A stretch of 64,000 bases of DNA, from contig DATJLR010000002.1 in assembly GCA_035509435.1 (NCBI GenBank), forward strand, positions 133,774 through 197,773, written 5' to 3'. A program made the translations under genes and the position numbers. The DNA comes from Minisyncoccota bacterium (GTDB taxonomy: Bacteria > Patescibacteriota > Minisyncoccia > UBA6257 > 2-01-FULL-56-20). Of the stretch, positions 10,771-29,362 are shown in pieces. Under the pieces are notes generated by a model. That model was not told the origin of the DNA, searched no databases, and saw only the letters and a program-made list of their open reading frames with translations. Position 1 is the stretch's first letter. Each line of letters starts with the position of its first letter.

Positions 10771-10794
10771 TCAAATCCAGTCCGGTGCCCCTTG

Positions 10795-10867
10795 TGGACC
10801 CGCCCGGAGTTGCGCCGGGATCTCCCGATTGTCAAAAGCGGGCGCTCTACTGTTGAGCTACGGGCCC
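10795..10867 (-). pseudogene. degenerate tRNA-like element (Ala-like acceptor G3:U70/A73; aberrant anticodon and T loops)
   Basis: 73 nt with 7-bp acceptor GGGCCCG/CGGGTCC, a D arm GCTC-AACAGTA-GAGC and a T stem CCCGG/CCGGG. The anticodon region is a 4-bp stem with an 11-nt loop and the T loop is CGCAACT instead of TTCGAAT. Confidence 0.4.
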
Positions 10868-15097: not shown

Positions 15098-16546
15098 ATG
15101 TACTCGAACGGAGAATTTTATATCACGACGCCCATCTATTATATAAACGGCGTGCCGCACATCGGCAGCGCATACACGACGATCGTGGCCGACACGCTCG
15201 CGCGGTGGCGCGAGGCGCAGGGGGAGGTCGTGACATTTTTGACGGGCACCGACGAGTTCGCGCAGAAGACGCCGGACGCCGCGGAAAAAACGGGGGAGGA
15301 GGTGCACGTCTACGCGGAGCGCATGGCGAACGCCTGGATGGAAACATGGCACAAGCTCGGCATCTCGAACACCGACTTCATCCGCACCACGGAGGAGCGC
15401 CATATCGACACGGTAAAGGATTTTTGGGGCCGCCTGGACGCCGCGGGCGATATCTATAAAGGGCAGTACGAAGGATTGTATTGCAAAGGGCACGAGGCGT
15501 TCATAAAAGAAAGCGACCTCGTTGACGGGCTCTGTCCGGAGCACAAGACGGCGCCCGAGCGCGTCGTGGAGGAGAACTATTTCTTCAAGCTTTCCAATTA
15601 TCAGCAGCGCCTTCTGGAATTTTACGAGGCGCACGGCGATTTTGTGGCGCCCGCGCACCGCTTCAACGAGGTGAAGGCGTTCGTGGAGGACGGCCTCGAA
15701 GACATCAGCTTCTCGCGCGAGCGCAAAGGCAATCGCGTGCAGTGGGGCATCCCCGTGCCGAACGATCCGGGCCAGGTGATATACGTGTGGGCCGATGCGC
15801 TCGTCAATTACATCTCCGCGATCGGCATCGAAAAATGGGAGGAGCATCCGGCGGACATCCATACGGTGGGAAAGGACATCCTGCGGTTCCACGCCGTCAT
15901 CTGGCCGGCGATGCTCATGTCGGCCGGGTTGCCTTTGCCGGGCCAGATCATCGCGAACGGGTTTCTCACGGTGAACGGCACAAAGATGGGCAAGTCGCTC
16001 GGCAACGTGATCGATCCGCTTGAGCTCACGTCGCGATACGGCAATGACGGCCTGCGCTACTTTTTGCTCCGCGAGATCTCGTACGGCGACGATGGCGATT
16101 TTTCGGAAGAAAAGATGAAAGAACGTTACAATGCGGACCTCGCGAACGGCCTCGGCAACTTTGCCGCGCGCGTGCTCACGCTTGCGGAGAAGGAGTCCGT
16201 GCAATTTGGAAGGCTTGATGCCGAGTTCGAGGCGGCGATCCGCGACGCAAAGCGCGCCGTGCAGGAAAAAATGGCGAACTTTAAATTTTCCGACGCGCTC
16301 GCCGCGATCTGGGCTGTGATTTCGCTCGGCGACCGTTACGTGAACGAAAAGAAAGTGTGGGAGATCAAAGATGCCGCCGCCCGTTCGCAGGCACTTTTCA
16401 ACCTCGTCTCGTTTCTTGATAATGTCGCCGCGATGCTCGTGCCGTTCCTGCCCGAAACGTCAAAAAAGATCACCGCCGCGATCGCCTGGAAGGACAATGT
16501 TTTAGATGTAAAAAAGCCGGAAATTCTTTTCCCGCGGATAAAATAG
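15098..16546 (+). CDS. metG: methionyl-tRNA synthetase, short form
   Basis: PHIGSAYTT (HIGH-type) and KMGKS motifs, Zn knuckle CPEH; 482 aa with no C-terminal tRNA-binding extension. Confidence 0.85.
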   Translation: MYSNGEFYITTPIYYINGVPHIGSAYTTIVADTLARWREAQGEVVTFLTGTDEFAQKTPDAAEKTGEEVHVYAERMANAWMETWHKLGISNTDFIRTTEERHIDTVKDFWGRLDAAGDIYKGQYEGLYCKGHEAFIKESDLVDGLCPEHKTAPERVVEENYFFKLSNYQQRLLEFYEAHGDFVAPAHRFNEVKAFVEDGLEDISFSRERKGNRVQWGIPVPNDPGQVIYVWADALVNYISAIGIEKWEEHPADIHTVGKDILRFHAVIWPAMLMSAGLPLPGQIIANGFLTVNGTKMGKSLGNVIDPLELTSRYGNDGLRYFLLREISYGDDGDFSEEKMKERYNADLANGLGNFAARVLTLAEKESVQFGRLDAEFEAAIRDAKRAVQEKMANFKFSDALAAIWAVISLGDRYVNEKKVWEIKDAAARSQALFNLVSFLDNVAAMLVPFLPETSKKITAAIAWKDNVLDVKKPEILFPRIK

Positions 16547-16623
16547 CGTGCCCGATATGCATTTTGAAATCACAGATTATGATTTCAAAATCAAGCCACG
16601 CATGAGCGCCTGCCGCCCCGCTG

Positions 16624-17220
16624 CTATCGCACCCCTTGGTCAAACAAACTTTCGTAGACGCGATTAATGTCGCGTTCGAAGTGCTCCACATCGTCGTAGT
16701 TGTTCTCAAGAACGATCTCGGCGCGGCTGCCGATGTCCGGGATATCCACTTCGGTGCGTACCTTTTCCTGCTCCATGAATTTTTCCCACGTCGTCGCGCC
16801 TTCGCCCGAGCGGTTCCGCGCAAGGAGCCGTGCATGGCGCACTTTCGGATCGGCTGAGATGTAGATCAATATGGTTTTGATCCCCTCATCGTTCAATCCG
16901 CGGATCATGCGCTCGTCGCCGAGCCAGCGTACGCCGTCGAGGATCGTCACGTCGGCGGTGTCGCCAACCAGCCGGTGGCGCATCGCCCGCGAGAGCGCCC
17001 CGTCGCCGAAGCCGGTGTCCGCGTTCATGACGATCGCCATCTTTTGCTCGTTGTCGCGCCCGCGCGGAATGCCCCACAGGTCGAGCGTCTCCTTCAATAT
17101 TTCCGAGAACGTATGCCGGCTCACCGTGTATCCGTCCTCCACGAGCAGTTTCTCGAGCGTGTTCGCGCACGTTTCCTTTCCCGCGAGCGGCGCACCGACG
17201 ATGCCGATGACGAGTTTCAT
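16624..17220 (-). CDS. P-loop NTPase, putative nucleotide kinase-like protein
   Basis: ATG at 17220; Walker A GIVGAPLAGKET. Confidence 0.5.
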   Translation of the reverse strand: MKLVIGIVGAPLAGKETCANTLEKLLVEDGYTVSRHTFSEILKETLDLWGIPRGRDNEQKMAIVMNADTGFGDGALSRAMRHRLVGDTADVTILDGVRWLGDERMIRGLNDEGIKTILIYISADPKVRHARLLARNRSGEGATTWEKFMEQEKVRTEVDIPDIGSRAEIVLENNYDDVEHFERDINRVYESLFDQGVR

Positions 17221-17675
17221 GAGAGTGCTTTGAGCGCCTCGCGGGCGTAATATTTGACGCGTTCTTTTATGCCGAGCGCCGGATCGTCCAGTTCTGCCGA
17301 GGTGAGCCAACGGATGTCATCGCTGATCTCCCGGTTGCCTTGTTTGATGACATCGCTCTTTGATGTGGCAAAGTAAATAAAATCAACGTGCTCGTGGGTC
17401 TCATTAATCCGGTGGCGATCTATAAAACGCGGCGTAAGCACTGTTTTTGCGTCGTCAAATTGTTTCAGTGGCGCAGCGGGCACCAATTCAATATCGAGAT
17501 TCACTTCCTCCTTTACTTCGCGGATAGCAGCTTGTGGCGGATCTTCGTCCAGCTCTATATGGCCGCCTGGCGGAAGCCATACATGATATTTATCGTGTTT
17601 GCGGAGGAGGACGCGCCCCTTATTTACAATATATATGTCAGTGACGAAGTCGACTTTCTCGTGGATGTGCGGCAT
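17217..17675 (-). CDS. NUDIX hydrolase
   Basis: Nudix box GGHIELDEDPPQAAIREVKEEVN; 4-bp overlap with the downstream gene. Confidence 0.8.
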   Translation of the reverse strand: MPHIHEKVDFVTDIYIVNKGRVLLRKHDKYHVWLPPGGHIELDEDPPQAAIREVKEEVNLDIELVPAAPLKQFDDAKTVLTPRFIDRHRINETHEHVDFIYFATSKSDVIKQGNREISDDIRWLTSAELDDPALGIKERVKYYAREALKALS

Positions 17676-17714
17676 GGCTCGTGGTCGTGTCTCTATGATA
17701 GAATAACTTCATCT

Positions 17715-18596
17715 ATGCCGCAATCTCATTTCTTTGATGCCCACACCCACGTGCAATTCTCCGGCTTTGACGACGACCGCGAGGCGGTGATCCGCCGCGC
17801 CGCGGAGGCCGACGTGCGGATGGTGAACGTGGGCACCCAGCGTGATACGTCCGCCGCGGCCGTGGCGCTCGCGCACGCGCACCCCGATGGCGCAATGTAT
17901 GCGGCGGTGGGGCTCCATCCGGTGCACACCAGCCGCTCGTTCCACGACGCGCAGGAACTCGGCGCCCCTGCAGACGGCGCCGCGGCAAAAGGATTCACCT
18001 CGCGTGGCGAAGTGTTCGACACGGACTATTATAGAGCGCTCGCGCTTGATCCTGCGACGGTCGCGATAGGCGAGTGCGGCCTGGACTACTTCCATTTTGA
18101 CGAGAGCGAGCCGCGCGACGCGCAGATCGCGCGCCAGAAGGACGCGTTCGCGGCGCAGATCACGCTCGCCAAAGAAATTAAAAAACCATTGATGGTCCAT
18201 TGCCGGAACGCGTTTGCGGACGTGATAGAGATGGTCCGTCCGCACGCGCACGAACTTGTGTCCGGCGTCGTTCACTTCTTTACCGGCACGCCGGATGACG
18301 CGCGCGCGTTGTTCGAGCTTGGATTCTCGTTCACATTTGGCGGTGCGATCACGTTCCCGCCGCGCAAGGGCATGACGGAGGGCGCATACGACGAGGTCGT
18401 GAGGATCATCCCGATCGATCGCATCATGTCGGAGACCGATGCGCCGTACGTGGCGCCCGCCGCATACCGCGGCAAGAAGAACGAGCCGGCATATGTGGTG
18501 CATGCCGTCGCGCGCCTTGCGGAGCTGAAAGGCGTTTCGCCGGAAGAGATGAAGGCGCAGATCTGGGAGAACGCGAAGCGGATCTTTGGAATTTGA
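17715..18596 (+). CDS. tatD: TatD-family metal-dependent hydrolase/DNase
   Basis: FFDAHTH, GECGLDY, ETDAPY motifs; ATG at 17715, divergent from the NUDIX gene. Confidence 0.85.
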   Translation: MPQSHFFDAHTHVQFSGFDDDREAVIRRAAEADVRMVNVGTQRDTSAAAVALAHAHPDGAMYAAVGLHPVHTSRSFHDAQELGAPADGAAAKGFTSRGEVFDTDYYRALALDPATVAIGECGLDYFHFDESEPRDAQIARQKDAFAAQITLAKEIKKPLMVHCRNAFADVIEMVRPHAHELVSGVVHFFTGTPDDARALFELGFSFTFGGAITFPPRKGMTEGAYDEVVRIIPIDRIMSETDAPYVAPAAYRGKKNEPAYVVHAVARLAELKGVSPEEMKAQIWENAKRIFGI

Positions 18597-18657
18597 AAGT
18601 GTTAAAAAATCGTTAAATTTTATTTGCTTTTTGTTTTTGTGAGCGTATCTTGGTAGT

Positions 18658-18957
18658 ATGGAATGGATGAAGAAATTATTGACGGAAGCAAATTTGCCGG
18701 TCATCTTCTTTAAAGAAAGAGGGCAATTTGTGGCGTACACTCCTGCGCTTGATCTGTCCACTGCCGGCAAAACGCTTGGCCAGGCGGAAAAGCACTTTAA
18801 GGAAGCGGTGGGGCTCTTTTTTGAAGAATGCCACAAGATGGGAACCCTCGACGCTGTCTTGCGTGATTTGGGATGGGAAAAGAGTCGTACCGGTTGGGTT
18901 TCCCCGGTTGCTGTTGTTCAGGGATCGCGGACGATAAGCGTTCCGCTTCCTGCGTAA
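18658..18957 (+). CDS. hicB: HicB-like (UPF0150) antitoxin
   Basis: VIFFKERGQFVAYTPALDLSTAGKTLGQAEKHFKEAVGLFFEE pattern. Confidence 0.55.
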   Translation: MEWMKKLLTEANLPVIFFKERGQFVAYTPALDLSTAGKTLGQAEKHFKEAVGLFFEECHKMGTLDAVLRDLGWEKSRTGWVSPVAVVQGSRTISVPLPA

Positions 18958-18965
18958 GTGCACGC

Positions 18966-19196
18966 ATGACGGGACTGCGTCAGGTCTCGTGGAAAGAATT
19001 TGAAAAATTTCTCATAAAGATCGGCTGTGTTTTTGTACGTGAAAAAGGCGACCATAGAGTTTGGAAGCGGCGAGGATTGAGGCGACCCATCGTTTTGCCG
19101 AGAGTAGATCCGCCTCCAATCTTTGTGGTCAGAAACAATCTTCGCCTGTTGGATGTTTCAGTCGAAGAATATTTGGAAGCCGTTAGGAAACATTGA
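18966..19196 (+). CDS. hicA: HicA (YcfA-like) toxin
   Basis: KEFEKFLIKIGCVFVREKGDHRVWKR ... PRVDPPP HicA pattern; ATG at 18966. Confidence 0.65.
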   Translation: MTGLRQVSWKEFEKFLIKIGCVFVREKGDHRVWKRRGLRRPIVLPRVDPPPIFVVRNNLRLLDVSVEEYLEAVRKH

Positions 19197-19232
19197 GAAA
19201 ACGGGCGCAAAGGCTTAGAATGGGTAAGTACT

Positions 19233-22121
19233 ATGCCCGCTTACGACCCGAAGAAAATAGAGGAAAAGTGGAACAAGAAGTGGCTGGCCGACAAGGTTTT
19301 TAAAGTTGCCGACGATTCGCCGAAGCCGAAATATTATCAGCTGGAGACGTTTCCGTATCCGTCGGCGGCCGGGTTGCACATGGGGCATCCAAAAGGGTAC
19401 ACCGCGGAAGACATCCACGCGCGCTATATGCGCATGCGCGGATACAATGTTTTGTACACGATGGGATGGGACGCCTTCGGATTGCCCACGGAAAATTATG
19501 CCATCAAAGTCGGCAAAAATCCCAAGGAGATCGCGGTGACGAACACCGACAACTTCCGCCGGCAGGTGCAGATGTTCGGCTTTTCGTACGATTGGGATCG
19601 CGAGGTCGACACATCGTCGCCCGAATATTACAAGTGGACGCAGTGGATATTCATCCAGCTTTACAAAAAAGGATTGGCGTACCGTGCGAATGCCAAAGTG
19701 AATTGGTGCCCGAAGGACCAGACCGTGCTCGCGAACGAGCAGGTGATCGACGGCAAGTGCGAACGCTGCGGCAGTGAGATCGAAGAACGCGACATGGAGC
19801 AGTGGTTCCTGAAGATCACCGACTACGCCGAGCGGCTGCTTGCGGACCTGAAAGGCCTCGACTGGCCGGCGGCGACGATCAAGCGTCAGGAGGATTGGAT
19901 CGGCAAGAGCGAAGGCGCGGAGCTGGAATTTTCCGTCACGAACTCCGCTCTGCGCATAAAAATATTTACGACGCGGCCGGATACATTGTTCGGCGCCACA
20001 TACTTGGTGCTTGCGCCAGAACATGAGCTGGTCGAAAAGTTAAAAGAAAAGCTTTCCAACAAGAAAGAGGTTGAGGCATATGTGGAGGCGGCGTCGCACA
20101 AGACCGACCGCATGCGCCAGCAGGAAGAAAAGGACAAGACCGGCGTGGAACTGAAGGGCGTGATGGCGATCAATCCGGCCACAAAAGAAGAGATCCCGAT
20201 CTGGGTGGCGGATTATGTCTTGGGTTCGTACGGCACCGGCGTGATCATGGCCGTGCCCGCGCATGACGAGCGCGATTTTGAGTTTGCCAAGAAGTTCGGA
20301 TTGCCGATAAAACAAGTTGTCGCCCCGCATCTCGTCAATCGGGAACATCCGCCGCTTCCCGGCAAAGAAAATACAAAACGGGACATCATTTATGCATTCG
20401 TGAAGCATCCGACGGAGAATAAATTCATGGTATTGCGGTCAAAGAAATATTCCTGGCTTGTGCCGATCTCGGGCGGCATTGAAAAGAACGAGACGCCGGA
20501 AATGGCGGCGCGCCGGGAGGTTGCGGAAGAGACGGGATATAAAAATATGCGATTAGTGAAGGAGATGCCCTTTGCGATCTTCGCGGAGTTTTATGTACCT
20601 CATAAAGATTTGAATCGCGCGGCAACTTCCCGTGCGTTATATTTTGAACTCACCGACCTTGAGCGTGACCCCGTGAGCGAAGAGGAGGCGGCATTGCAGG
20701 ATGTGGAATGGGTCGATGATGGAGGCCTTGATACGCTTGACCCGCTCGTTGAGCGACCCTATATCCTAAAGTGGTTGAGGCATGGTGAGTATCCATTTAC
20801 GGAGGAAGGTATCGTGATGAACTCCGGGCAATTCACCGGGATGGACTCCGAAAAAGCAAAAGCTGAGATAACAAAGTTCGTCGGTGGCACGATGAAGACG
20901 CAGTTCAGGATCCGCGACTGGTCCGTGTCGCGCCAGCGGTATTGGGGCGTGCCGATCCCGATGGTCCATTGCGCTGCGTGTCGCGCCGCGGGGCGCGGGG
21001 ACGGCATCGTGCCGGTGCCGGAGAACGAGCTGCCGGTGGTATTGCCCGACCTTGAGAATTTCCGGCCGCAGGGGATGCCGCCGCTCGCGAGCTCGCCCGA
21101 CTTCATCAACGTGAAGTGCCCGGTGTGCGGCGGCGATGCCAAGCGCGACCCGGAGACGCTCGACACGTTCGTGGATTCGTCGTGGTACTTTTTGCGCTAT
21201 CCCGATCCGCACAATGCGACGGCAATTTTTGATAAGGAAAAAGTGAAAAAATGGATGCCGGTGGACCTTTATGTGATCGGGGCGGAGCATACGGTTTTGC
21301 ACCTGCTCTACTCGCGCTTCATCACGAAATTTCTGCAGGACGAGGGATGGGTTTCTTTTGCGGAACCGTTCATAAAATTGCGGCACCAGGGGCTCATCAT
21401 GGGCACCGATGGCGCAAAGATGTCCAAGAGCAAGGGCAATGTCGTGAATCCGGATGAGATCGTGGGGGAGTTCGGCGCGGACGCCACGCGCTTGTACCTC
21501 ATGTTCATGGGGCCGTTCGCGGACTCGACGCCGTGGGACCCGAAGGGGATCCTGGGCGTTGAGCGCTTCCTGAAGCGGATGTGGAAATACTGCAGCGACG
21601 CGATTGGGCTTATGGATGTAAAAAAATCGGCAACGGCGCCTGCAAATGTGCAGGAAAAGCCATCCGCCCGCGCCGCGCTGCATCGCGCCATCAAAAAAGT
21701 GGGGGAGGACATTGAGGCATTCAAATTCAACACCGCTATTTCCGCTCTTATGATACTCTTAAATGAGGTGGAGTCGGCCGCGCCGCTTGGCAAAGATGAT
21801 CTCGCGTCACTCGTAAAGATCGTCCATCCGTTCGCGCCGCACATGGCGCAGGAATTGTGGTCGATCATGGGCAACGGGAGCTATGTGGATTTTGAGCCGT
21901 GGCCGGCGTACGACCCCGCGCTTGTCGCGGAAGAGAAGGTCCTGCTCGTATTGCAGGTCAACAGCAAAACGCGCGACAGCGTTTCCGTGGATGCGGCGAT
22001 CGGCGAGGATGCCGCAAAGGAGCTCGCGCTCGCGAACGAAAAGGTGAAGGCCGCGCTCGCCGGCGCCGCGCCGAAGCGCATCATCTACGTTGATAAAAAA
22101 CTGGTCAACATCGTGATCTAA
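19233..22121 (+). CDS. leuS: leucyl-tRNA synthetase carrying an inserted NUDIX hydrolase domain
   Basis: HMGHPKGY class I motif, AVPAHDERDFEFAKKFGL (end of CP1/editing region) and KMSKSKGN. About 140 extra residues containing a Nudix box (GGIEKNETPEMAARREVAEETGY) lie between the AHDxRD region and the RDWSVSRQRYWG region; 962 aa. Confidence 0.9.
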   Translation: MPAYDPKKIEEKWNKKWLADKVFKVADDSPKPKYYQLETFPYPSAAGLHMGHPKGYTAEDIHARYMRMRGYNVLYTMGWDAFGLPTENYAIKVGKNPKEIAVTNTDNFRRQVQMFGFSYDWDREVDTSSPEYYKWTQWIFIQLYKKGLAYRANAKVNWCPKDQTVLANEQVIDGKCERCGSEIEERDMEQWFLKITDYAERLLADLKGLDWPAATIKRQEDWIGKSEGAELEFSVTNSALRIKIFTTRPDTLFGATYLVLAPEHELVEKLKEKLSNKKEVEAYVEAASHKTDRMRQQEEKDKTGVELKGVMAINPATKEEIPIWVADYVLGSYGTGVIMAVPAHDERDFEFAKKFGLPIKQVVAPHLVNREHPPLPGKENTKRDIIYAFVKHPTENKFMVLRSKKYSWLVPISGGIEKNETPEMAARREVAEETGYKNMRLVKEMPFAIFAEFYVPHKDLNRAATSRALYFELTDLERDPVSEEEAALQDVEWVDDGGLDTLDPLVERPYILKWLRHGEYPFTEEGIVMNSGQFTGMDSEKAKAEITKFVGGTMKTQFRIRDWSVSRQRYWGVPIPMVHCAACRAAGRGDGIVPVPENELPVVLPDLENFRPQGMPPLASSPDFINVKCPVCGGDAKRDPETLDTFVDSSWYFLRYPDPHNATAIFDKEKVKKWMPVDLYVIGAEHTVLHLLYSRFITKFLQDEGWVSFAEPFIKLRHQGLIMGTDGAKMSKSKGNVVNPDEIVGEFGADATRLYLMFMGPFADSTPWDPKGILGVERFLKRMWKYCSDAIGLMDVKKSATAPANVQEKPSARAALHRAIKKVGEDIEAFKFNTAISALMILLNEVESAAPLGKDDLASLVKIVHPFAPHMAQELWSIMGNGSYVDFEPWPAYDPALVAEEKVLLVLQVNSKTRDSVSVDAAIGEDAAKELALANEKVKAALAGAAPKRIIYVDKKLVNIVI

Positions 22122-22140
22122 CCCGTTACCTATCACTGCC

Positions 22141-23109
22141 ATGGGAGGAAAGATCGGATTCATCCTTATTCTCATCGTCGCGCTCGGCGTCGGCGTGTAC
22201 CTGTACAGCTCCGGCGCGTTCACGGCCGGCCTCGCGGGGCTCGGCTCGCTCGCGCGTCTTCCCGGATCATCTTCCTCCACCGCCTCGTCTTCGGGCCTCG
22301 GCAGTTTCTCGTTCTTTGATTTTGGATCGTCCACGATCGTGCAGGGGCCGCCGCCGCCGTCCGGATCGTCGGGATCCGCAGGGGGTGCTCCCACGCAGCC
22401 CACGCTTGGCAATGCCATCGTGCCTACCTCCAGCATTCCCGCCGGCTTCACTGCGGCAGAGCTCTCGCCCTACTTCGGGCAGGTGCGGTTCGGCAGCGTG
22501 TCGGCCGCGTCCTATTACAGTTACGGCACGATCACGCTGAACACCGCTTTTCCATATAACGCAACGGGCACGATCGACGTGACGGGTTGGCAGATCCGCG
22601 CCAACCATGGCGATGAATATATCCCGCAGGCGGTCAACCTGTATGACCCGACGGGCCTCGCGCCGGCGACCGACATCCAGATGAAGAACGGGGATACGCT
22701 GTATCTCTATTCTTCGTCCGCGCCGTTCAATCTGCGGCTCAACGAATGCATCGGATACGCCGCGCATGTGGCGAACTTCACGCCGCCGCTCCCGCTCACG
22801 TGCCCGTACGTGGACCAGTCACAGATCCAGGGATTCAGCGGCGCATGCCAGAACTTCATCAATTCGATCGGGGCATGCCAACAGCCGAACTATTCAAGCG
22901 CGCAGTTTCCGCAGAACGATTATTCCTGCACCCAATACCTGGAGAACAATTTCACTTATCGGTCGTGCTTTGACCAACACAGCAATGATCCGAACTTCCT
23001 GAGCGATCAGATATGGGTATGGACAGGCGCGAACCCCGTCGACCCGTATCACGATCAGGTGGAATTGCTCGATAAACAGGGGCTTTTGGTGGACCTGTAT
23101 ACCTATTAG
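22141..23109 (+). CDS. hypothetical membrane-anchored/secreted Cys-rich protein
   Basis: N-terminal TM, Ser/Gly-rich linker, C-terminal domain with 6 Cys. Confidence 0.55.
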   Translation: MGGKIGFILILIVALGVGVYLYSSGAFTAGLAGLGSLARLPGSSSSTASSSGLGSFSFFDFGSSTIVQGPPPPSGSSGSAGGAPTQPTLGNAIVPTSSIPAGFTAAELSPYFGQVRFGSVSAASYYSYGTITLNTAFPYNATGTIDVTGWQIRANHGDEYIPQAVNLYDPTGLAPATDIQMKNGDTLYLYSSSAPFNLRLNECIGYAAHVANFTPPLPLTCPYVDQSQIQGFSGACQNFINSIGACQQPNYSSAQFPQNDYSCTQYLENNFTYRSCFDQHSNDPNFLSDQIWVWTGANPVDPYHDQVELLDKQGLLVDLYTY

Positions 23110-23175
23110 TGGCTAGGTTGCCAGGAGGATATTGATATAGTAGGATACAGGCAGAACATTGCCAGAAAGGAGGGC

Positions 23176-23418
23176 GTGATGGGGTGTGAGGAACTCCAGC
23201 AACAGGCACGGGTCCAGTACGTGGACGTTCTGATGTACGAAAGGAGCGCCGCGATCGACGAAAGAACACCTCCATTCCCTTCCCTGGACAAAATCAAAGA
23301 ATTAACGGAGCATGCCAAGGAATGCATCGTGTGTTCGAGATTTTTGGAACATGGCCTGATGAGGCCGCTTCAAAAATCTGAGCAGACGATGCTTTGGGAG
23401 GGGGCTGCCCGCGCATAA
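23176..23418 (+). CDS. hypothetical small protein
   Basis: Strong SD (AAAGGAGGG) 5 nt upstream of the ATG; 80 aa; CIVC motif. Confidence 0.45.
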   Translation: MMGCEELQQQARVQYVDVLMYERSAAIDERTPPFPSLDKIKELTEHAKECIVCSRFLEHGLMRPLQKSEQTMLWEGAARA

Positions 23419-23440
23419 TTTCGCGCGGGCTTTCATTTTT
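23407..23440. terminator. bidirectional terminator hairpin
   Basis: GCCCGCGC-ATAATTTC-GCGCGGGC followed by TTTCATTTTT; sits between the small + gene and the stop of htrA (-). Confidence 0.6.
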
Positions 23441-23447
23441 AAATAAT

Positions 23448-24464
23448 TTATTTCCGTTCCGTGAGCGTCGCCTTTACGCTGAACTGCTTTCCGTCGCGGA
23501 GGACCAAAAGTTCTATCTCGTCGCCCACGTTCGCGTCCTCGAGCAGGTCCTGGACGGGGTGGTCATGGTCCAGTTTCTTGCCGTTGATCTCGAGCACGAT
23601 GTCGTTCTCGCGCACGTCCGCTTTTTCCGCCGGACTGTCCGGGACGACCGCCGCGTCGTGCTGGGTCTCGCGCATCACGAGCGCGCCGTGGTCAACGGAG
23701 AGGTTCATCTTCTTCTGGAGATCGCCGTCCACCATCACATAGCGGAGCCCAAGGAGCGGCCGGCGGATGCGGCCGTATTTTTTTATGTCATCGATGTCGC
23801 GCCGCGCGGCGTTCACCGGGATCGCGAAGCCGATCGATTGCGCGCCGGAGACGATCGCGGCGTTCACGCCGACGACGAGTCCGTCTCGGTCCACGATCGG
23901 GCCGCCGGAATTTCCGGGGTTGATCGCGGCGTCGGTCTGGATGAGGCCGCGCATCTCCTGCGGCGCGGCGTCCGGATCCTGCTGGGCCGTGATCGAGCGC
24001 GAAAGGCCGGAGACGATGCCGACGGAAACGGTGTTGCGGAAGATGCCGAGCGCGTTGCCAATCGCGATGAGCGACTGGCCGAGCTCGAGCTTCGTCGCAT
24101 CGCCGAGGCGGACGCAGGGGAGCCCTTTCGCATCGATTTTTAAAATGGCCACGTCGTTGATAGGGTCGCGGCTCAATATCGTTGCCGGGAATGTGCGGCC
24201 GTCGCTCAAGATCACGGTGTATTCCGCCTTCTTTTCGCTCACCACGTGCTTGTTCGTAAGGATGAGCCCGTCCTCGGCCACGATGAAGCCGGAACCGCCG
24301 CCGGTGGTCACCATGCCGCGGTCGTCGACGGTGCCGTCCGGGATCGTCGGGTTGAATCCTTTCGGAAATTGCTTTTGCAGGTCCTCAAGCTTCTCCGCGA
24401 TCGCGATCGACACGACCGACGGCATGACCTTCTTGATGACCTTGATGACGCGCTTATCGTCCAT
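23448..24464 (-). CDS. htrA: HtrA/DegP-family serine protease with PDZ domain
   Basis: Catalytic triad context (TNKHVV, DVAILK, GNSGGP) plus a C-terminal PDZ. Confidence 0.85.
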   Translation of the reverse strand: MDDKRVIKVIKKVMPSVVSIAIAEKLEDLQKQFPKGFNPTIPDGTVDDRGMVTTGGGSGFIVAEDGLILTNKHVVSEKKAEYTVILSDGRTFPATILSRDPINDVAILKIDAKGLPCVRLGDATKLELGQSLIAIGNALGIFRNTVSVGIVSGLSRSITAQQDPDAAPQEMRGLIQTDAAINPGNSGGPIVDRDGLVVGVNAAIVSGAQSIGFAIPVNAARRDIDDIKKYGRIRRPLLGLRYVMVDGDLQKKMNLSVDHGALVMRETQHDAAVVPDSPAEKADVRENDIVLEINGKKLDHDHPVQDLLEDANVGDEIELLVLRDGKQFSVKATLTERK

Positions 24465-27677: not shown

Positions 27678-27699
27678 TGCTATTATTGTACCAAATTTG

Positions 27700-27784
27700 C
27701 GGAGGGTGCAGGACTCGAACCTGCAAGTCCCTTACGGGACCCCGGTTTTCAAGACCGGTGCCTTGCCATTCGGCGCAACCCTCC
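27700..27784 (-). tRNA. tRNA-Ser (anticodon TGA)
   Basis: Acceptor GGAGGGT/ACCCTCC, anticodon loop CTTGAAA, long variable arm, T loop GTTCGAGTC; CCA not encoded. Confidence 0.85.
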
Positions 27785-27955
27785 TCTTGGATTTTATACC
27801 ATCAACTTATAATGTTTTCCAATCCAGCTCCTGGTGAGATAATGTTCTTCAGAGTGACAATTAGGACAGATCAATTCAAGATTATTCAATTCATTATTAT
27901 TTCTATTTCTGTCCTTATGGTGTACGTTCAAAATTTCACGCTTATTATAACCACA

Positions 27956-28288
27956 TCATTCGCATTTTCCACCCCGGATTTCAATCAGTCGTATTTTTAA
28001 GAGTCCAGTAGAAACGATTTTGTCTTTCAGCCTGCGCCCGGTATATTTTATACCCGCCCTATTTCTATTTGCACAACTTCTGCTGCATGTCTTTTTATTG
28101 AATCGCGCAGCGATGGGCTTTCCACGGATCGCACAGGGATGCTCTTTGAGGATAGATTTGCCGTAACAACTTGAACTGCAAAAGACATTTCCTTTATTGC
28201 CGGATATTTCTTTTGGTCTTCGATAGATCGGCCTCCGACAAATTTTGCATTCAATATTAGGGTTTCTCTTATACGCTTTCATCCACAC
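27956..28288 (-). CDS. hypothetical Cys-rich (zinc-ribbon-like) basic protein in AT-rich islet
   Basis: CKIC..x17..CSSSC plus a further C/H cluster; local GC much lower than surroundings; low confidence that it is expressed. Confidence 0.3.
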   Translation of the reverse strand: MWMKAYKRNPNIECKICRRPIYRRPKEISGNKGNVFCSSSCYGKSILKEHPCAIRGKPIAARFNKKTCSRSCANRNRAGIKYTGRRLKDKIVSTGLLKIRLIEIRGGKCE

Positions 28289-28344
28289 ACTTTACTGCCA
28301 AGCAAAATTGATTTCAAGAAAAATTTTAGAATTTTTTAATCTTG

Positions 28345-28415
28345 TGGACCCACGGGGAATCGAACCCCGACCTCCTCCATGCCATGGAGGCGTAATACCA
28401 TTTTACTATGGGCCC
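28345..28415 (-). tRNA. tRNA-Ala (anticodon GGC)
   Basis: Acceptor GGGCCCA/TGGGTCC with G3:U70, A73, anticodon loop ATGGCAT, T loop TTCGATT. Confidence 0.85.
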
Positions 28416-28502
28416 TTTATATTTGCAGATTTTCAGAACGGCCTTGCCACTCATTCTATATATATTGCGACCGATGCGTCAATCGTCTATAGTGTCTTCA
28501 AC

Positions 28503-28574
28503 GCCCTCGTAGTTCAACGGATAGAACCGACCCGTCCTAAGGGTAAGATCGAAGTTCAATTCTTCGCGAGGGCA
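28503..28574 (+). tRNA. tRNA-Arg (anticodon CCT)
   Basis: Acceptor GCCCTCG/CGAGGGC, D arm GTTC-AACGGATA-GAAC, anticodon loop GTCCTAA (27:43 mismatch), T loop TTCAATT. Confidence 0.7.
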
Positions 28575-28581
28575 CAACCAA

Positions 28582-28617
28582 AGGCGGATTTATCCACCGC
28601 CGGACTTTTCTTTTTTT
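28582..28617 (+). terminator. rho-independent terminator after tRNA-Arg
   Basis: GGCGG-ATTTATCCA-CCGCC hairpin followed by a T-rich run (CTTTTCTTTTTTT). Confidence 0.6.
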
Positions 28618-28619
28618 AT

Positions 28620-28961
28620 GGGAGTGCTATGGTAATGGGAGTTGCTTCCAAGTTTCAAACCAGGGATTTGGAGGCACATCTCAGACCCAAAAGGAAACGA
28701 TATATGCCCGTTGTCACGGTTCGCAGTGACTTGCAGCCCACAGGAGTATTTGTCCCTGGGCTGAACCCACCCAAACTAAACAGCGTATGCGTCAGCCCTG
28801 ACGTTGCCAATACGCTGGTGCCCCGCTTCATCGCTTCCCGTCGCGGAGGCCTGAAGCTTTCGAAGCCCGACTTTGCGAAACTCAAAGGCCATGCACTCGG
28901 AGAGAACGGCCAGCCCGGCTGTCTCTGCTGCCGAACGGCTCTCAATTGGGGTCTTTTCTAA
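28620..28961 (+). other. unassigned 340-bp element inside the tRNA cluster: candidate structured ncRNA or small basic ORF (28629..28961, 110 aa)
   Basis: GC-rich, several local hairpins; the ORF has a GGGAG SD at 4-nt spacing but atypical codon usage (gta, aga, agg, cga, cta). Confidence 0.25.
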
Positions 28962-29086
28962 CCCCGCTTTTCCCAGATCTGATTTTTCCCCAAGTACGCG
29001 GCGCTGCTCCTTCCCCAAGGAAGCAGCGCCTTTTTTATTTCCTGACCCTTGAAAAGGGTCCGCGTTTCTGTAACTATAGAGCGAAG

Positions 29087-29173
29087 GGAGAGGTGGCTGA
29101 GTGGTCGAAGGCGCCGCACTCGAAATGCGGTGTGCTCGAAAGGGCACCGTGGGTTCGAATCCCACCCTCTCCG
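29087..29173 (+). tRNA. tRNA-Ser (anticodon CGA)
   Basis: Acceptor GGAGAGG/CCTCTCC, anticodon stem-loop CCGCA-CTCGAAA-TGCGG, long variable arm, T loop GTTCGAATC. Confidence 0.85.
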
Positions 29174-29263
29174 CACCGGTGCGGATCACACGAATATGTT
29201 GCGCGATTGCCGTTTTTTCGCTATATTTTCTTGGAGCAGCGCGCCGCCGGCGCGCGTGACGGC

Positions 29264-29336
29264 GCCACCTTAGCTCAGTTGGTAGAGCAGTGCTTTCGTA
29301 AAGCAAAGGTCCCCGGTTCGAATCCGGGAGGTGGCT
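29264..29336 (+). tRNA. tRNA-Thr (anticodon CGT)
   Basis: Acceptor GCCACCT/AGGTGGC, discriminator U, anticodon loop TTCGTAA, T loop TTCGAAT. Confidence 0.8.
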
Positions 29337-29362
29337 CAAAAGTGATATAATAAGAACAATCT

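Follow-up and report, generated by a model that had tools for sequence, protein, structure and literature searches.

Bacterial aminoacyl-tRNA synthetases are usually seen as architecturally conservative, and appended functional domains as mainly a eukaryotic theme. One class Ia synthetase with an unrelated enzyme domain is catalogued as NCBIfam NF040702 (isoleucine--tRNA ligase, N-acetyltransferase domain-containing), which involves another synthetase and another domain (GNAT) than the case described here. The gene studied here, leuS, encodes the leucyl-tRNA synthetase (LeuRS) of a Minisyncoccota bacterium and lies in a 64,000-nucleotide stretch of contig DATJLR010000002.1, which we call the window. 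Its product is collinear with bacterial LeuRSs (TIGR00396; T. thermophilus 1H3N, E. coli 4AQ7) over its full length outside a single insert; in contrast to the T. thermophilus enzyme, it carries a 156-residue Nudix domain in the CP1 loop that corresponds to T. thermophilus residues 364-375, and it lacks the leucine-specific domain. Described Nudix hydrolases that resemble the insert are RppH/NudH (YgdP) and the ApnA hydrolases of lupin, C. elegans, T. thermophilus (Ndx1), M. tuberculosis (Rv2985) and Chlamydia (CT771), at 12-26% identity. Unlike these free-standing enzymes, the insert is nested in an aminoacyl-tRNA synthetase and has an invariant set of its own (R383, K458, R462 and W493). An Enterococcus faecalis MutT/nudix family protein (PDB 2AZW) is 18-20% identical to the insert; it adds no mechanism, because it is a structural-genomics entry whose title gives no function.

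Sequences with this architecture have long been public under generic or misleading names, and a LeuRS with a nested Nudix module is undescribed. NCBI gives the window protein no name beyond 'class I tRNA ligase family protein', and no source name of its homologues mentions Nudix. No curated model or name for LeuRS plus Nudix is found among the matches listed (25 of 36 NCBIfam matches), and the full-text literature that was searched, a body whose coverage leaves out most subscription journals, contains no description of the LeuRS-Nudix architecture.

A Nudix domain nested in the LeuRS editing domain

The initial annotation described a LeuS of 962 residues with about 140 extra residues and a complete Nudix box at the end of the CP1 editing region. 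The same uninterrupted frame was recovered, with the following features (aa, amino-acid positions in the window protein):

19233-22121, + strand: leuS open reading frame (ORF), bacterial-type LeuRS with nested Nudix domain; single uninterrupted frame, 962 aa plus stop
19377-19388, + strand: HMGH, the class I HIGH signature, aa 49-52; H49, G51 and H52 at least 90% conserved in the alignment of 120 LeuRSs
19893-20324, + strand: first part of the CP1 editing domain, aa 221-364, PF13603 positions 2-144 (PF13603, 215 bits in two stretches)
19938-19952, + strand: 'site A' loop, aa ~236-240, the hairpin turn between strands 225-235 and 241-246 (from insert mapping and DSSP of the AlphaFold2 model)
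19968-19985, + strand: TTRPDT, the T-rich editing motif, aa 246-251, inside the first CP1 part
20265-20267, + strand: editing Asp345, inside the first CP1 part
20325-20792, + strand: Nudix insert at 'site B', aa 365-520 (156 aa), a gap in the 1h3n alignment
20472-20540, + strand: Nudix box GGIEKNETPEMAARREVAEETGY, aa 414-436, a complete fit to G-x5-E-x7-REUxEExGU
20589-20618, + strand: subfamily motif FYVPHKDLNR, aa 453-462, with K458 and R462
20793-20912, + strand: second part of the CP1 editing domain, aa 521-560; the 1h3n alignment resumes with query 521 at T. thermophilus 376
aa 561-572, + strand: RDWSVSRQRYWG, ahead of which the second CP1 part returns to the catalytic core
21417-21431, + strand: KMSKS signature, aa 729-733; K729, M730, S731 and K732 invariant in the alignment of 120 LeuRSs

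The insert is a genuine Nudix segment. Pfam NUDIX (PF00293) matches aa 398-495 with 44.9 bits against a gathering cut-off of 21.1 (E 1.5e-11), and the box residues are G414, E420, R428, E429, V430, E432, E433, G435 and Y436. Alignment with T. thermophilus LeuRS (1h3n) sets the insert boundaries at aa 365-520. The loop at this place in the T. thermophilus enzyme has 12 residues, so that the window protein is longer here by about 144. The insert is predicted to adopt the alpha/beta/alpha sandwich of the Nudix fold, with a per-residue confidence (pLDDT) of 94-98 in the AlphaFold2 model of the whole protein. The extra Nudix segment of the initial annotation is therefore real, and its position has to be revised: it does not lie at the end of CP1 but is nested inside it, because the PF13603 match is split at about position 144 of 185 and some 40 CP1 residues follow the insert. 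The second PF13603 stretch was placed after the insert because the first ends at aa 367, profile position 144 of 185.

Outside the insert, the synthetase retains the expected parts. The TIGR00396 leuS_bact model matches in two stretches parted by the insert (1001.7 bits, cut-off 548.4), and T. thermophilus LeuRS (1h3n) matches at E 2.6e-235, query 2-364 aligning with T. thermophilus 2-363 and query 521-738 with 376-593. Pfam finds tRNA-synt_1, tRNA-synt_1_2 (editing) and Anticodon_1; the zinc-cysteine pairs are kept, as are the anticodon-binding and C-terminal domains, and the model of the whole LeuRS has a mean pLDDT of 90.7 and a predicted TM-score (pTM) of 0.82. Across the 120 closest LeuRSs, T246, T247, R248, T251, D345, R347 and D348 are invariant, and the class I signatures, TTRPDT and D345 are invariant or nearly so both with and without the insert. 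The enzyme looks intact, and we predict that it keeps charging and proofreading tRNA-Leu with its own sites. The leucine-specific domain (T. thermophilus ~594-633) has no counterpart, with few residues between 'HQGLIMG' and KMSKS (aa ~722-728, ~21396-21416).

Three other identities for the extra segment were considered and dropped. It is not a leucine-specific or CP2 element, as the leucine-specific domain is absent and the fold is that of a Nudix hydrolase. It is not a frameshift or assembly artefact: the gene is a single ORF, more than 100 independent assemblies show this architecture in frame, and the exact protein is present at NCBI (P0003) on a 439-kb contig of a Candidatus Paceibacterota metagenome-assembled genome (MAG). 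Inteins resemble the insert in being placed in a conserved region of an essential gene and in their patchy distribution and horizontal, cassette-like spread across lineages. The fold here is that of Nudix and not HINT, and splicing residues are missing: at the junctions, between PIKQVV and APHL on one side and at FTEEGIVMNS on the other, there is no N-terminal Cys, Ser or Thr and no C-terminal His-Asn. The 'MNS' on the C-terminal side is conserved LeuRS sequence, and no direct repeats were found at the insert edges. The Nudix domain also differs from an intein in being kept in the mature protein, because its catalytic residues are under purifying selection.

Conservation was examined over 133 unique Nudix domains from 136 proteins, in the numbering of the window protein. 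Within the Nudix box, G414, E429 and G435 are present in 100%, E432 and E433 in 99%, R428 in 96% and E420 in 95%. Four further residues, R383 (98%), K458 (100%), R462 (98%) and W493 (100%), mark the domain as an undescribed Nudix subfamily. Between the window gene and its closest relative (the P0004 gene, L089), the ratio of nonsynonymous to synonymous substitutions (dN/dS) is 0.03 in the insert, at a dS of about 1.0 and hence near saturation, versus 0.09-0.12 in the LeuRS body. The insert is thus functional at the protein level with its catalytic residues retained, and we infer that the domain is an active Mg2+-dependent hydrolase. It could instead be a catalytically inert structural or ligand-sensing domain, or a selfish insertion without benefit to the host, as would fit the replacement of E420 by Q and of R428 by Q or A in some subclades and the mobile, cassette-like behaviour described below. 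Such an account is barely plausible, given the near-complete conservation of the metal-binding Glu triad E429/E432/E433, a dN/dS lower than that of the synthetase around it, and the lack of intein or homing signatures and of flanking repeats.

Distribution and exchange of the module

The fusion recurs widely. A Nudix domain occupies the same site in 52 of the 120 closest LeuRSs, and a scan of one genome per GTDB species with two subfamily peptide patterns found a relative in 192 species. In 76 of the 80 loci fetched from these species, the Nudix domain lies in frame between the N- and C-terminal parts of LeuRS, and the uncut loci are single ORFs of about 890-1214 aa. The only frameshifted locus, L039 (2864-5783, from a Saccharibacteria MAG), has the C-terminal part of LeuRS in another frame after the Nudix domain, which may be a sequencing error or a pseudogene or split gene. 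By the depositors' own labels, 32 of the 80 loci come from Saccharibacteria, 13 from other Patescibacteria and 26 from MAGs of Bacilli, Clostridia, Firmicutes or Tenericutes type, with 9 other or uninformative. At least one 'Bacilli' host, L032, is genuinely Bacilli-like in its own sequence: its CP1 scores 230 bits with the S. pneumoniae CP1 domain against 140 with the window protein, and its LeuRS scores 595 with that of M. mobile against 473 with the window protein. Searching 1.84 billion cluster representatives with a profile yielded 178 matches at E ≤ 1e-30; the best 150 of these comprise 116 LeuRS-fused, 24 free-standing and 10 other architectures. Across hundreds of Patescibacteria and reduced-genome Bacillota species, an essential synthetase thus contains a second, unrelated catalytic domain within its proofreading domain.

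Within this range, the presence of the module is labile. The plain LeuRS P0008 shares 86% identity with the window protein across 758 body columns and has a 29-residue loop where the Nudix domain would be. On a neighbour-joining tree of 190 proteins, parsimony requires 19 changes between presence and absence, a rough count, as the tree was built on p-distances. There is almost no correlation between the identity of LeuRS bodies and that of their Nudix domains (r = 0.19): the bodies of P0007 and P0060 match at 88% identity and their Nudix domains at 23%, and some pairs with bodies 40-50% identical have inserts up to 72% identical. Comparison of the leuS genes of L087 and L088, which are about 90% identical in DNA and have Nudix cassettes unrelated to each other, shows the exchange at the DNA level. 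Identity along the body is 80-94%, drops sharply to 35-50% across aa ~350-540, where third codon positions are near random, and returns to 83-92% afterwards. The GC content of third codon positions (GC3) is likewise distinct, at 0.571 in the insert versus 0.74-0.77 in the rest of leuS; only 3.6% of equally long segments from 16 window genes are as low.

The number and place of the copies vary as well. The same Nudix subfamily stands at site A instead of site B in two Saccharibacteria loci (L040, 3281-6292; L079, 2-3160) and at both sites in P0128; tandem copies occur in L055/L056 and P0125, and P0123 and P0124 have three copies per LeuRS. Taken together, these sequence comparisons indicate that the Nudix module is an autonomous, exchangeable accessory that is gained, lost, duplicated and swapped. 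They also supply natural controls, in the form of near-identical LeuRSs with and without the module and of its free-standing homologues. A second divergent patch in the L087/L088 pair, which is otherwise 90% identical, covers leuS aa ~770-850 (~21540-21780) at about 29% amino-acid identity, in the linker and helical region before the anticodon-binding domain.

Outside LeuRS, the module was found on related scaffolds. Among the best 150 of the 178 profile matches, every identified fusion partner is derived from an aminoacyl-tRNA synthetase: LeuRS itself, a 'mini-CP1', or a ProRS-type anticodon-binding domain. The mini-CP1 proteins are stand-alone and about 280 aa long (P0198, P0222, P0229 at L086 2384-3223, P0239 and P0250, with P0204 listed alongside them); PF13603 matches at positions ~75-143, followed by the Nudix domain and the CP1 tail. 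The T-rich motif and the editing Asp are gone from these proteins and, as we read the sequences, so is the GTG motif. A mini-CP1 appears to be a piece of the LeuRS editing domain cut to the size of a gene and retained solely to scaffold the Nudix domain. The gene of P0229 is complete, and its neighbours are DegV and DUF1836 genes, a setting taken as Bacillota-like. In proteins of about 250 aa, a ProRS-type anticodon-binding domain precedes the Nudix domain (P0211 at L083 197-952, P0237, and P0273 at L084 5584-6324 and L085); its profile hits aa 284-366 of M. jannaschii ProRS (E 2.3e-6), and nine more ProRS chains fall below E 0.1. Genes for prefoldin and an IF-2B-family protein share the contig of P0273 and point to an archaeal (DPANN-like) host. 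Among the free-standing homologues, P0001 lies directly upstream of a ThrRS gene.

These observations bear on whether the insert serves LeuRS itself, as an in-cis proofreading or regulatory module that hydrolyses mis-activated aminoacyl-adenylate or takes some other part in leucine editing. The insert does lie inside the editing domain, and the model is confident even where the linkers run (pLDDT 89-94 near aa 351-370 and 511-530). Aminoacyl-adenylates, however, are acyl-phosphate mixed anhydrides and not nucleoside-diphosphate-X compounds, and for this reason do not count as classical substrates of Nudix enzymes. The CP1 editing residues are kept with or without the insert, a LeuRS without it is 86% identical in the body, and the same module also occurs at the other loop, more than once per protein, as a protein of its own and on scaffolds other than LeuRS. 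The 'novel editing module' of the initial annotation is therefore unlikely: the substrate is not of the Nudix type, the canonical editing site is kept, and the module is dispensable, swapped and portable. We regard any in-cis proofreading or regulatory role as very improbable.

Possible substrates of the nested Nudix domain

The nearest characterised enzymes offer some indication of what the domain may cleave. RppH models are the best NCBIfam matches and are hit by 32 of 33 subfamily members. The best structural neighbours of the insert, each with its structural-similarity value, are as follows:

E. coli RppH, 14.3
M. tuberculosis Rv2985 diadenosine polyphosphatase, 13.8
AvrM14 decapping effector, 13.5
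DDP1 and DIPP1, 13.3 and 13.0
T. thermophilus Ap6A hydrolase, 13.1
Lupin Ap4A hydrolase, 12.9

The lupin enzyme (1f3y) is also the best sequence match in the PDB, at E 7.8e-4 with a single sequence and 1e-8 with a profile. A Tyr about 16-18 residues downstream of the Nudix box was reportedly put forward by Dunn and Bessman in 1999 as a marker of asymmetric Ap4A/ApnA hydrolases; the window protein has Y454 at +18, and in other insert types positions +17 and +18 are F, Y or H in varying order. By the structural comparison, the closest known relatives are enzymes that cut polyphosphate bridges, in NpnN, in 5'-triphosphorylated or Np4-capped RNA, or in diphosphoinositol polyphosphates (PP-InsP); as a guide to the substrate this is weak, because Nudix specificity is poorly predicted from fold. 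We infer that the invariant basic residues of the subfamily fit such cleavage. Assignment to a characterised Nudix family by sequence failed, with sub-threshold NCBIfam matches and mixed PDB profile matches. A phage origin and membership in a defence system were also considered and found no support: IMG/VR gave only generic Nudix-box matches (query residues ~41-80), BFVD only generic Nudix folds, and PADLOC only weak Nudix-box matches to PDC-S07.

We favour a reading, to which we give a probability of roughly 45%, in which the Nudix domain works close to the machinery of aminoacylation and hydrolyses RNA ends or polyphosphate-bridged nucleotides there. The synthetase or other tRNA-binding scaffold would tether the domain, so that polyphosphate-bridged nucleotides would be removed near the translation apparatus. 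Candidate substrates would be the dinucleoside polyphosphates (Np4N/Ap4A) that synthetases make from aminoacyl-adenylates, and also polyphosphorylated or Np4-capped RNA ends. Aminoacyl-tRNA synthetases make Ap3-5N, and in other bacteria RppH/NudH acts both on Ap3-5N and on Np4 or triphosphorylated RNA ends (PMC7705103). The Nudix domain would then be a piggy-backed clean-up enzyme and not a step in leucine editing, with LeuRS charging and proofreading at its own sites. The initial annotation had proposed a pruning of side products and named both diadenosine polyphosphates and aminoacyl-adenylates as classical Nudix substrates; the first are compatible with the affinity to RppH, ApnA, DIPP and decapping enzymes, and the second drop out for the chemical reason given above. 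If the domain does act on dinucleoside polyphosphates made by synthetases, or on RNA or tRNA ends, it would form a physical link between aminoacylation and the metabolism of Np4N and RNA ends.

Several observations weigh against this reading. The insert falls below every curated family threshold, and all NCBIfam matches listed are far under their cut-offs: against the RppH model NF001938 (PRK00714 models) it scores 33.4 bits, where the cut-off is 116. The PDB profile search was mixed, with Ap4A hydrolase and ADP-ribose pyrophosphatase both at 1e-8, and within the Nudix superfamily neither the fold nor profile similarity is a good guide to specificity. A simple housekeeping clean-up enzyme would not be expected to be replaced like a cassette or to occur in multiple copies. 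Free-standing homologues have no aminoacyl-tRNA synthetase neighbour in the two Saccharibacteria loci inspected (L050, L068), so that the neighbourhood seen for P0001 is not general. Finally, the co-occurrence of Ham1, Ser-hydrolase and ASCH inserts in CP1 suggests that this domain may be a permissive carrier for any small hydrolase.

The last point leads to another account, in which the domain is a generic house-cleaning pyrophosphatase of nucleoside triphosphates or nucleoside-diphosphate-X compounds, MutT- or NudI-like, that in a streamlined genome is fused to an essential and constitutively expressed gene for co-expression only, with CP1 as a permissive site and the domain functionally unconnected to LeuRS or tRNA. 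Ham1/ITPase, which stands at another CP1 loop in relatives and once at a third site, is a classic house-cleaning NTPase, and its loop also receives Ser-hydrolase and ASCH domains; the Nudix insert is dispensable and has free-standing homologues, and NudI, MutT and NudB are among its sub-threshold matches. The score with the MutT 8-oxo-dGTPase model (NF008044 / TIGR00586) is, however, 21.5 bits against a cut-off of 148, and the best structural neighbours are RppH, ApnA, DIPP and decapping enzymes rather than MutT. All fusion partners identified in the best 150 representatives derive from aminoacyl-tRNA synthetases, and the swapping of cassettes and their presence in one to three copies would be odd for a single sanitising activity. 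We consider a sanitiser of this kind possible but on the doubtful side.

The swapping of cassettes would fit a module for tRNA-end repair or protection against toxins, in which the Nudix domain would remove a pyrophosphate- or nucleotide-linked block, such as the 3'-CCA pyrophosphate added by toxSAS enzymes or a 5' cap-like group, in an arms race. ToxSAS enzymes pyrophosphorylate the CCA end of tRNA, and hydrolases can reverse this (10.1101/2021.04.30.441581; PMC11559606). The tethers bind the acceptor end (CP1) or the anticodon (ProRS-type domain) of tRNA, and divergent cassettes in near-identical genes, frequent gain and loss, and multiple copies form a conflict-like pattern. Decapping enzymes are among the structural neighbours, as are DIPP/DDP1, which take a beta-phosphate off a pyrophosphate ester; RNA-binding ASCH and esterase domains are co-inserted in relatives. 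Against this stand the single candidate family and weak Nudix-box matches in PADLOC and the lack of close relatives in viral contigs. LeuRS would also limit the action to tRNA-Leu, and 3'-end binding by the mini-CP1 is doubtful because the T-rich motif, the editing Asp and, by our reading, the GTG motif are lost. Reversal of the modification has been demonstrated for SAH hydrolases, in a study that does not mention Nudix (10.1101/2021.04.30.441581). Such a repair module is distinctly unlikely. A broader version, in which the Nudix cassettes and the Ham1, esterase and ASCH inserts together would turn the LeuRS CP1 of small-genome bacteria into a docking platform for rapidly exchanged tRNA-end repair or de-blocking enzymes, a so far unrecognised immunity layer carried by a synthetase and directed against tRNA-targeting toxins, is quite improbable; it would explain both the divergent cassettes in near-identical leuS genes and the fusions to other tRNA-binding modules derived from aminoacyl-tRNA synthetases.

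Other CP1 inserts and the surroundings of leuS

CP1 is a hotspot for inserts of small hydrolase or RNA-binding domains. Site A, which is empty in the window LeuRS, holds Ham1/ITPase, Ser-hydrolase, ASCH or Nudix in relatives. Ham1/ITPase (PF01725, ~205 aa) is found there in many Paceibacterota LeuRSs, with or without a Nudix domain at site B (P0006, P0009, P0010, P0019, P0020, P0022, P0025, P0031, P0033, P0036, P0039, P0062 and L003), and in P0163 Ham1 occupies a third site, which lies past the catalytic core and before the anticodon domain. Some of the Ham1-bearing LeuRSs are named 'non-canonical purine NTP pyrophosphatase' at NCBI; together with the generic name of the window protein, these misleading names expose a practical annotation problem. 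Other LeuRSs of the clade have an alpha/beta-hydrolase at site A (PF06821 Ser_hydrolase, ~175 aa; P0026, P0046, P0052, P0056, P0066, P0067, P0078, P0084, P0085, P0087, P0101, P0106 and others, and L007), and P0091, L011, L025 and L034 have an ASCH domain (PF04266). At site B, the Ham1-bearing P0020 and P0022 have an unrelated insert of about 100 residues with no Pfam match, and P0104 has one of about 50 aa.

The surroundings of leuS are conserved in gene order. Over window positions 15098-24464, compared with L087, L089 and L090, the order is MetRS, a P-loop protein of about 200 aa (- strand), a free-standing Nudix gene (- strand), TatD and leuS, followed on the 3' side by a protein of about 320 aa with no assigned function and an HtrA-like protease (- strand). 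The free-standing Nudix gene, which the initial annotation had pointed out upstream of leuS, does exist:

17217-17675, - strand: free-standing Nudix gene, 152 aa; PF00293 60.9 bits, GC3 0.549

It is neither the source nor a close paralogue of the insert, the two sharing 33% identity over only 57 aa around the Nudix box. The gene is present near leuS in L087 and L089 and missing there in L090, which has a plain LeuRS. Its GC3 is atypically low, like that of the insert.

The six tRNA genes in the window (10794-10867 and 27699-29337) are Ser-TGA twice, Ala-GGC, Arg-CCT, Ser-CGA and Thr-CGT, and no tRNA-Leu gene was found in the window. Between TatD and leuS, a HicA-toxin ORF (PF07927) lies within 18873-19196 and is preceded by an overlapping 99-aa ORF that has no Pfam match and is possibly HicB-like. 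This pair (18658-19196) is absent from the otherwise syntenic L089, and L090 has ORFs of 99 and 156 aa at its position; it resembles a toxin-antitoxin pair that was inserted immediately upstream of leuS.

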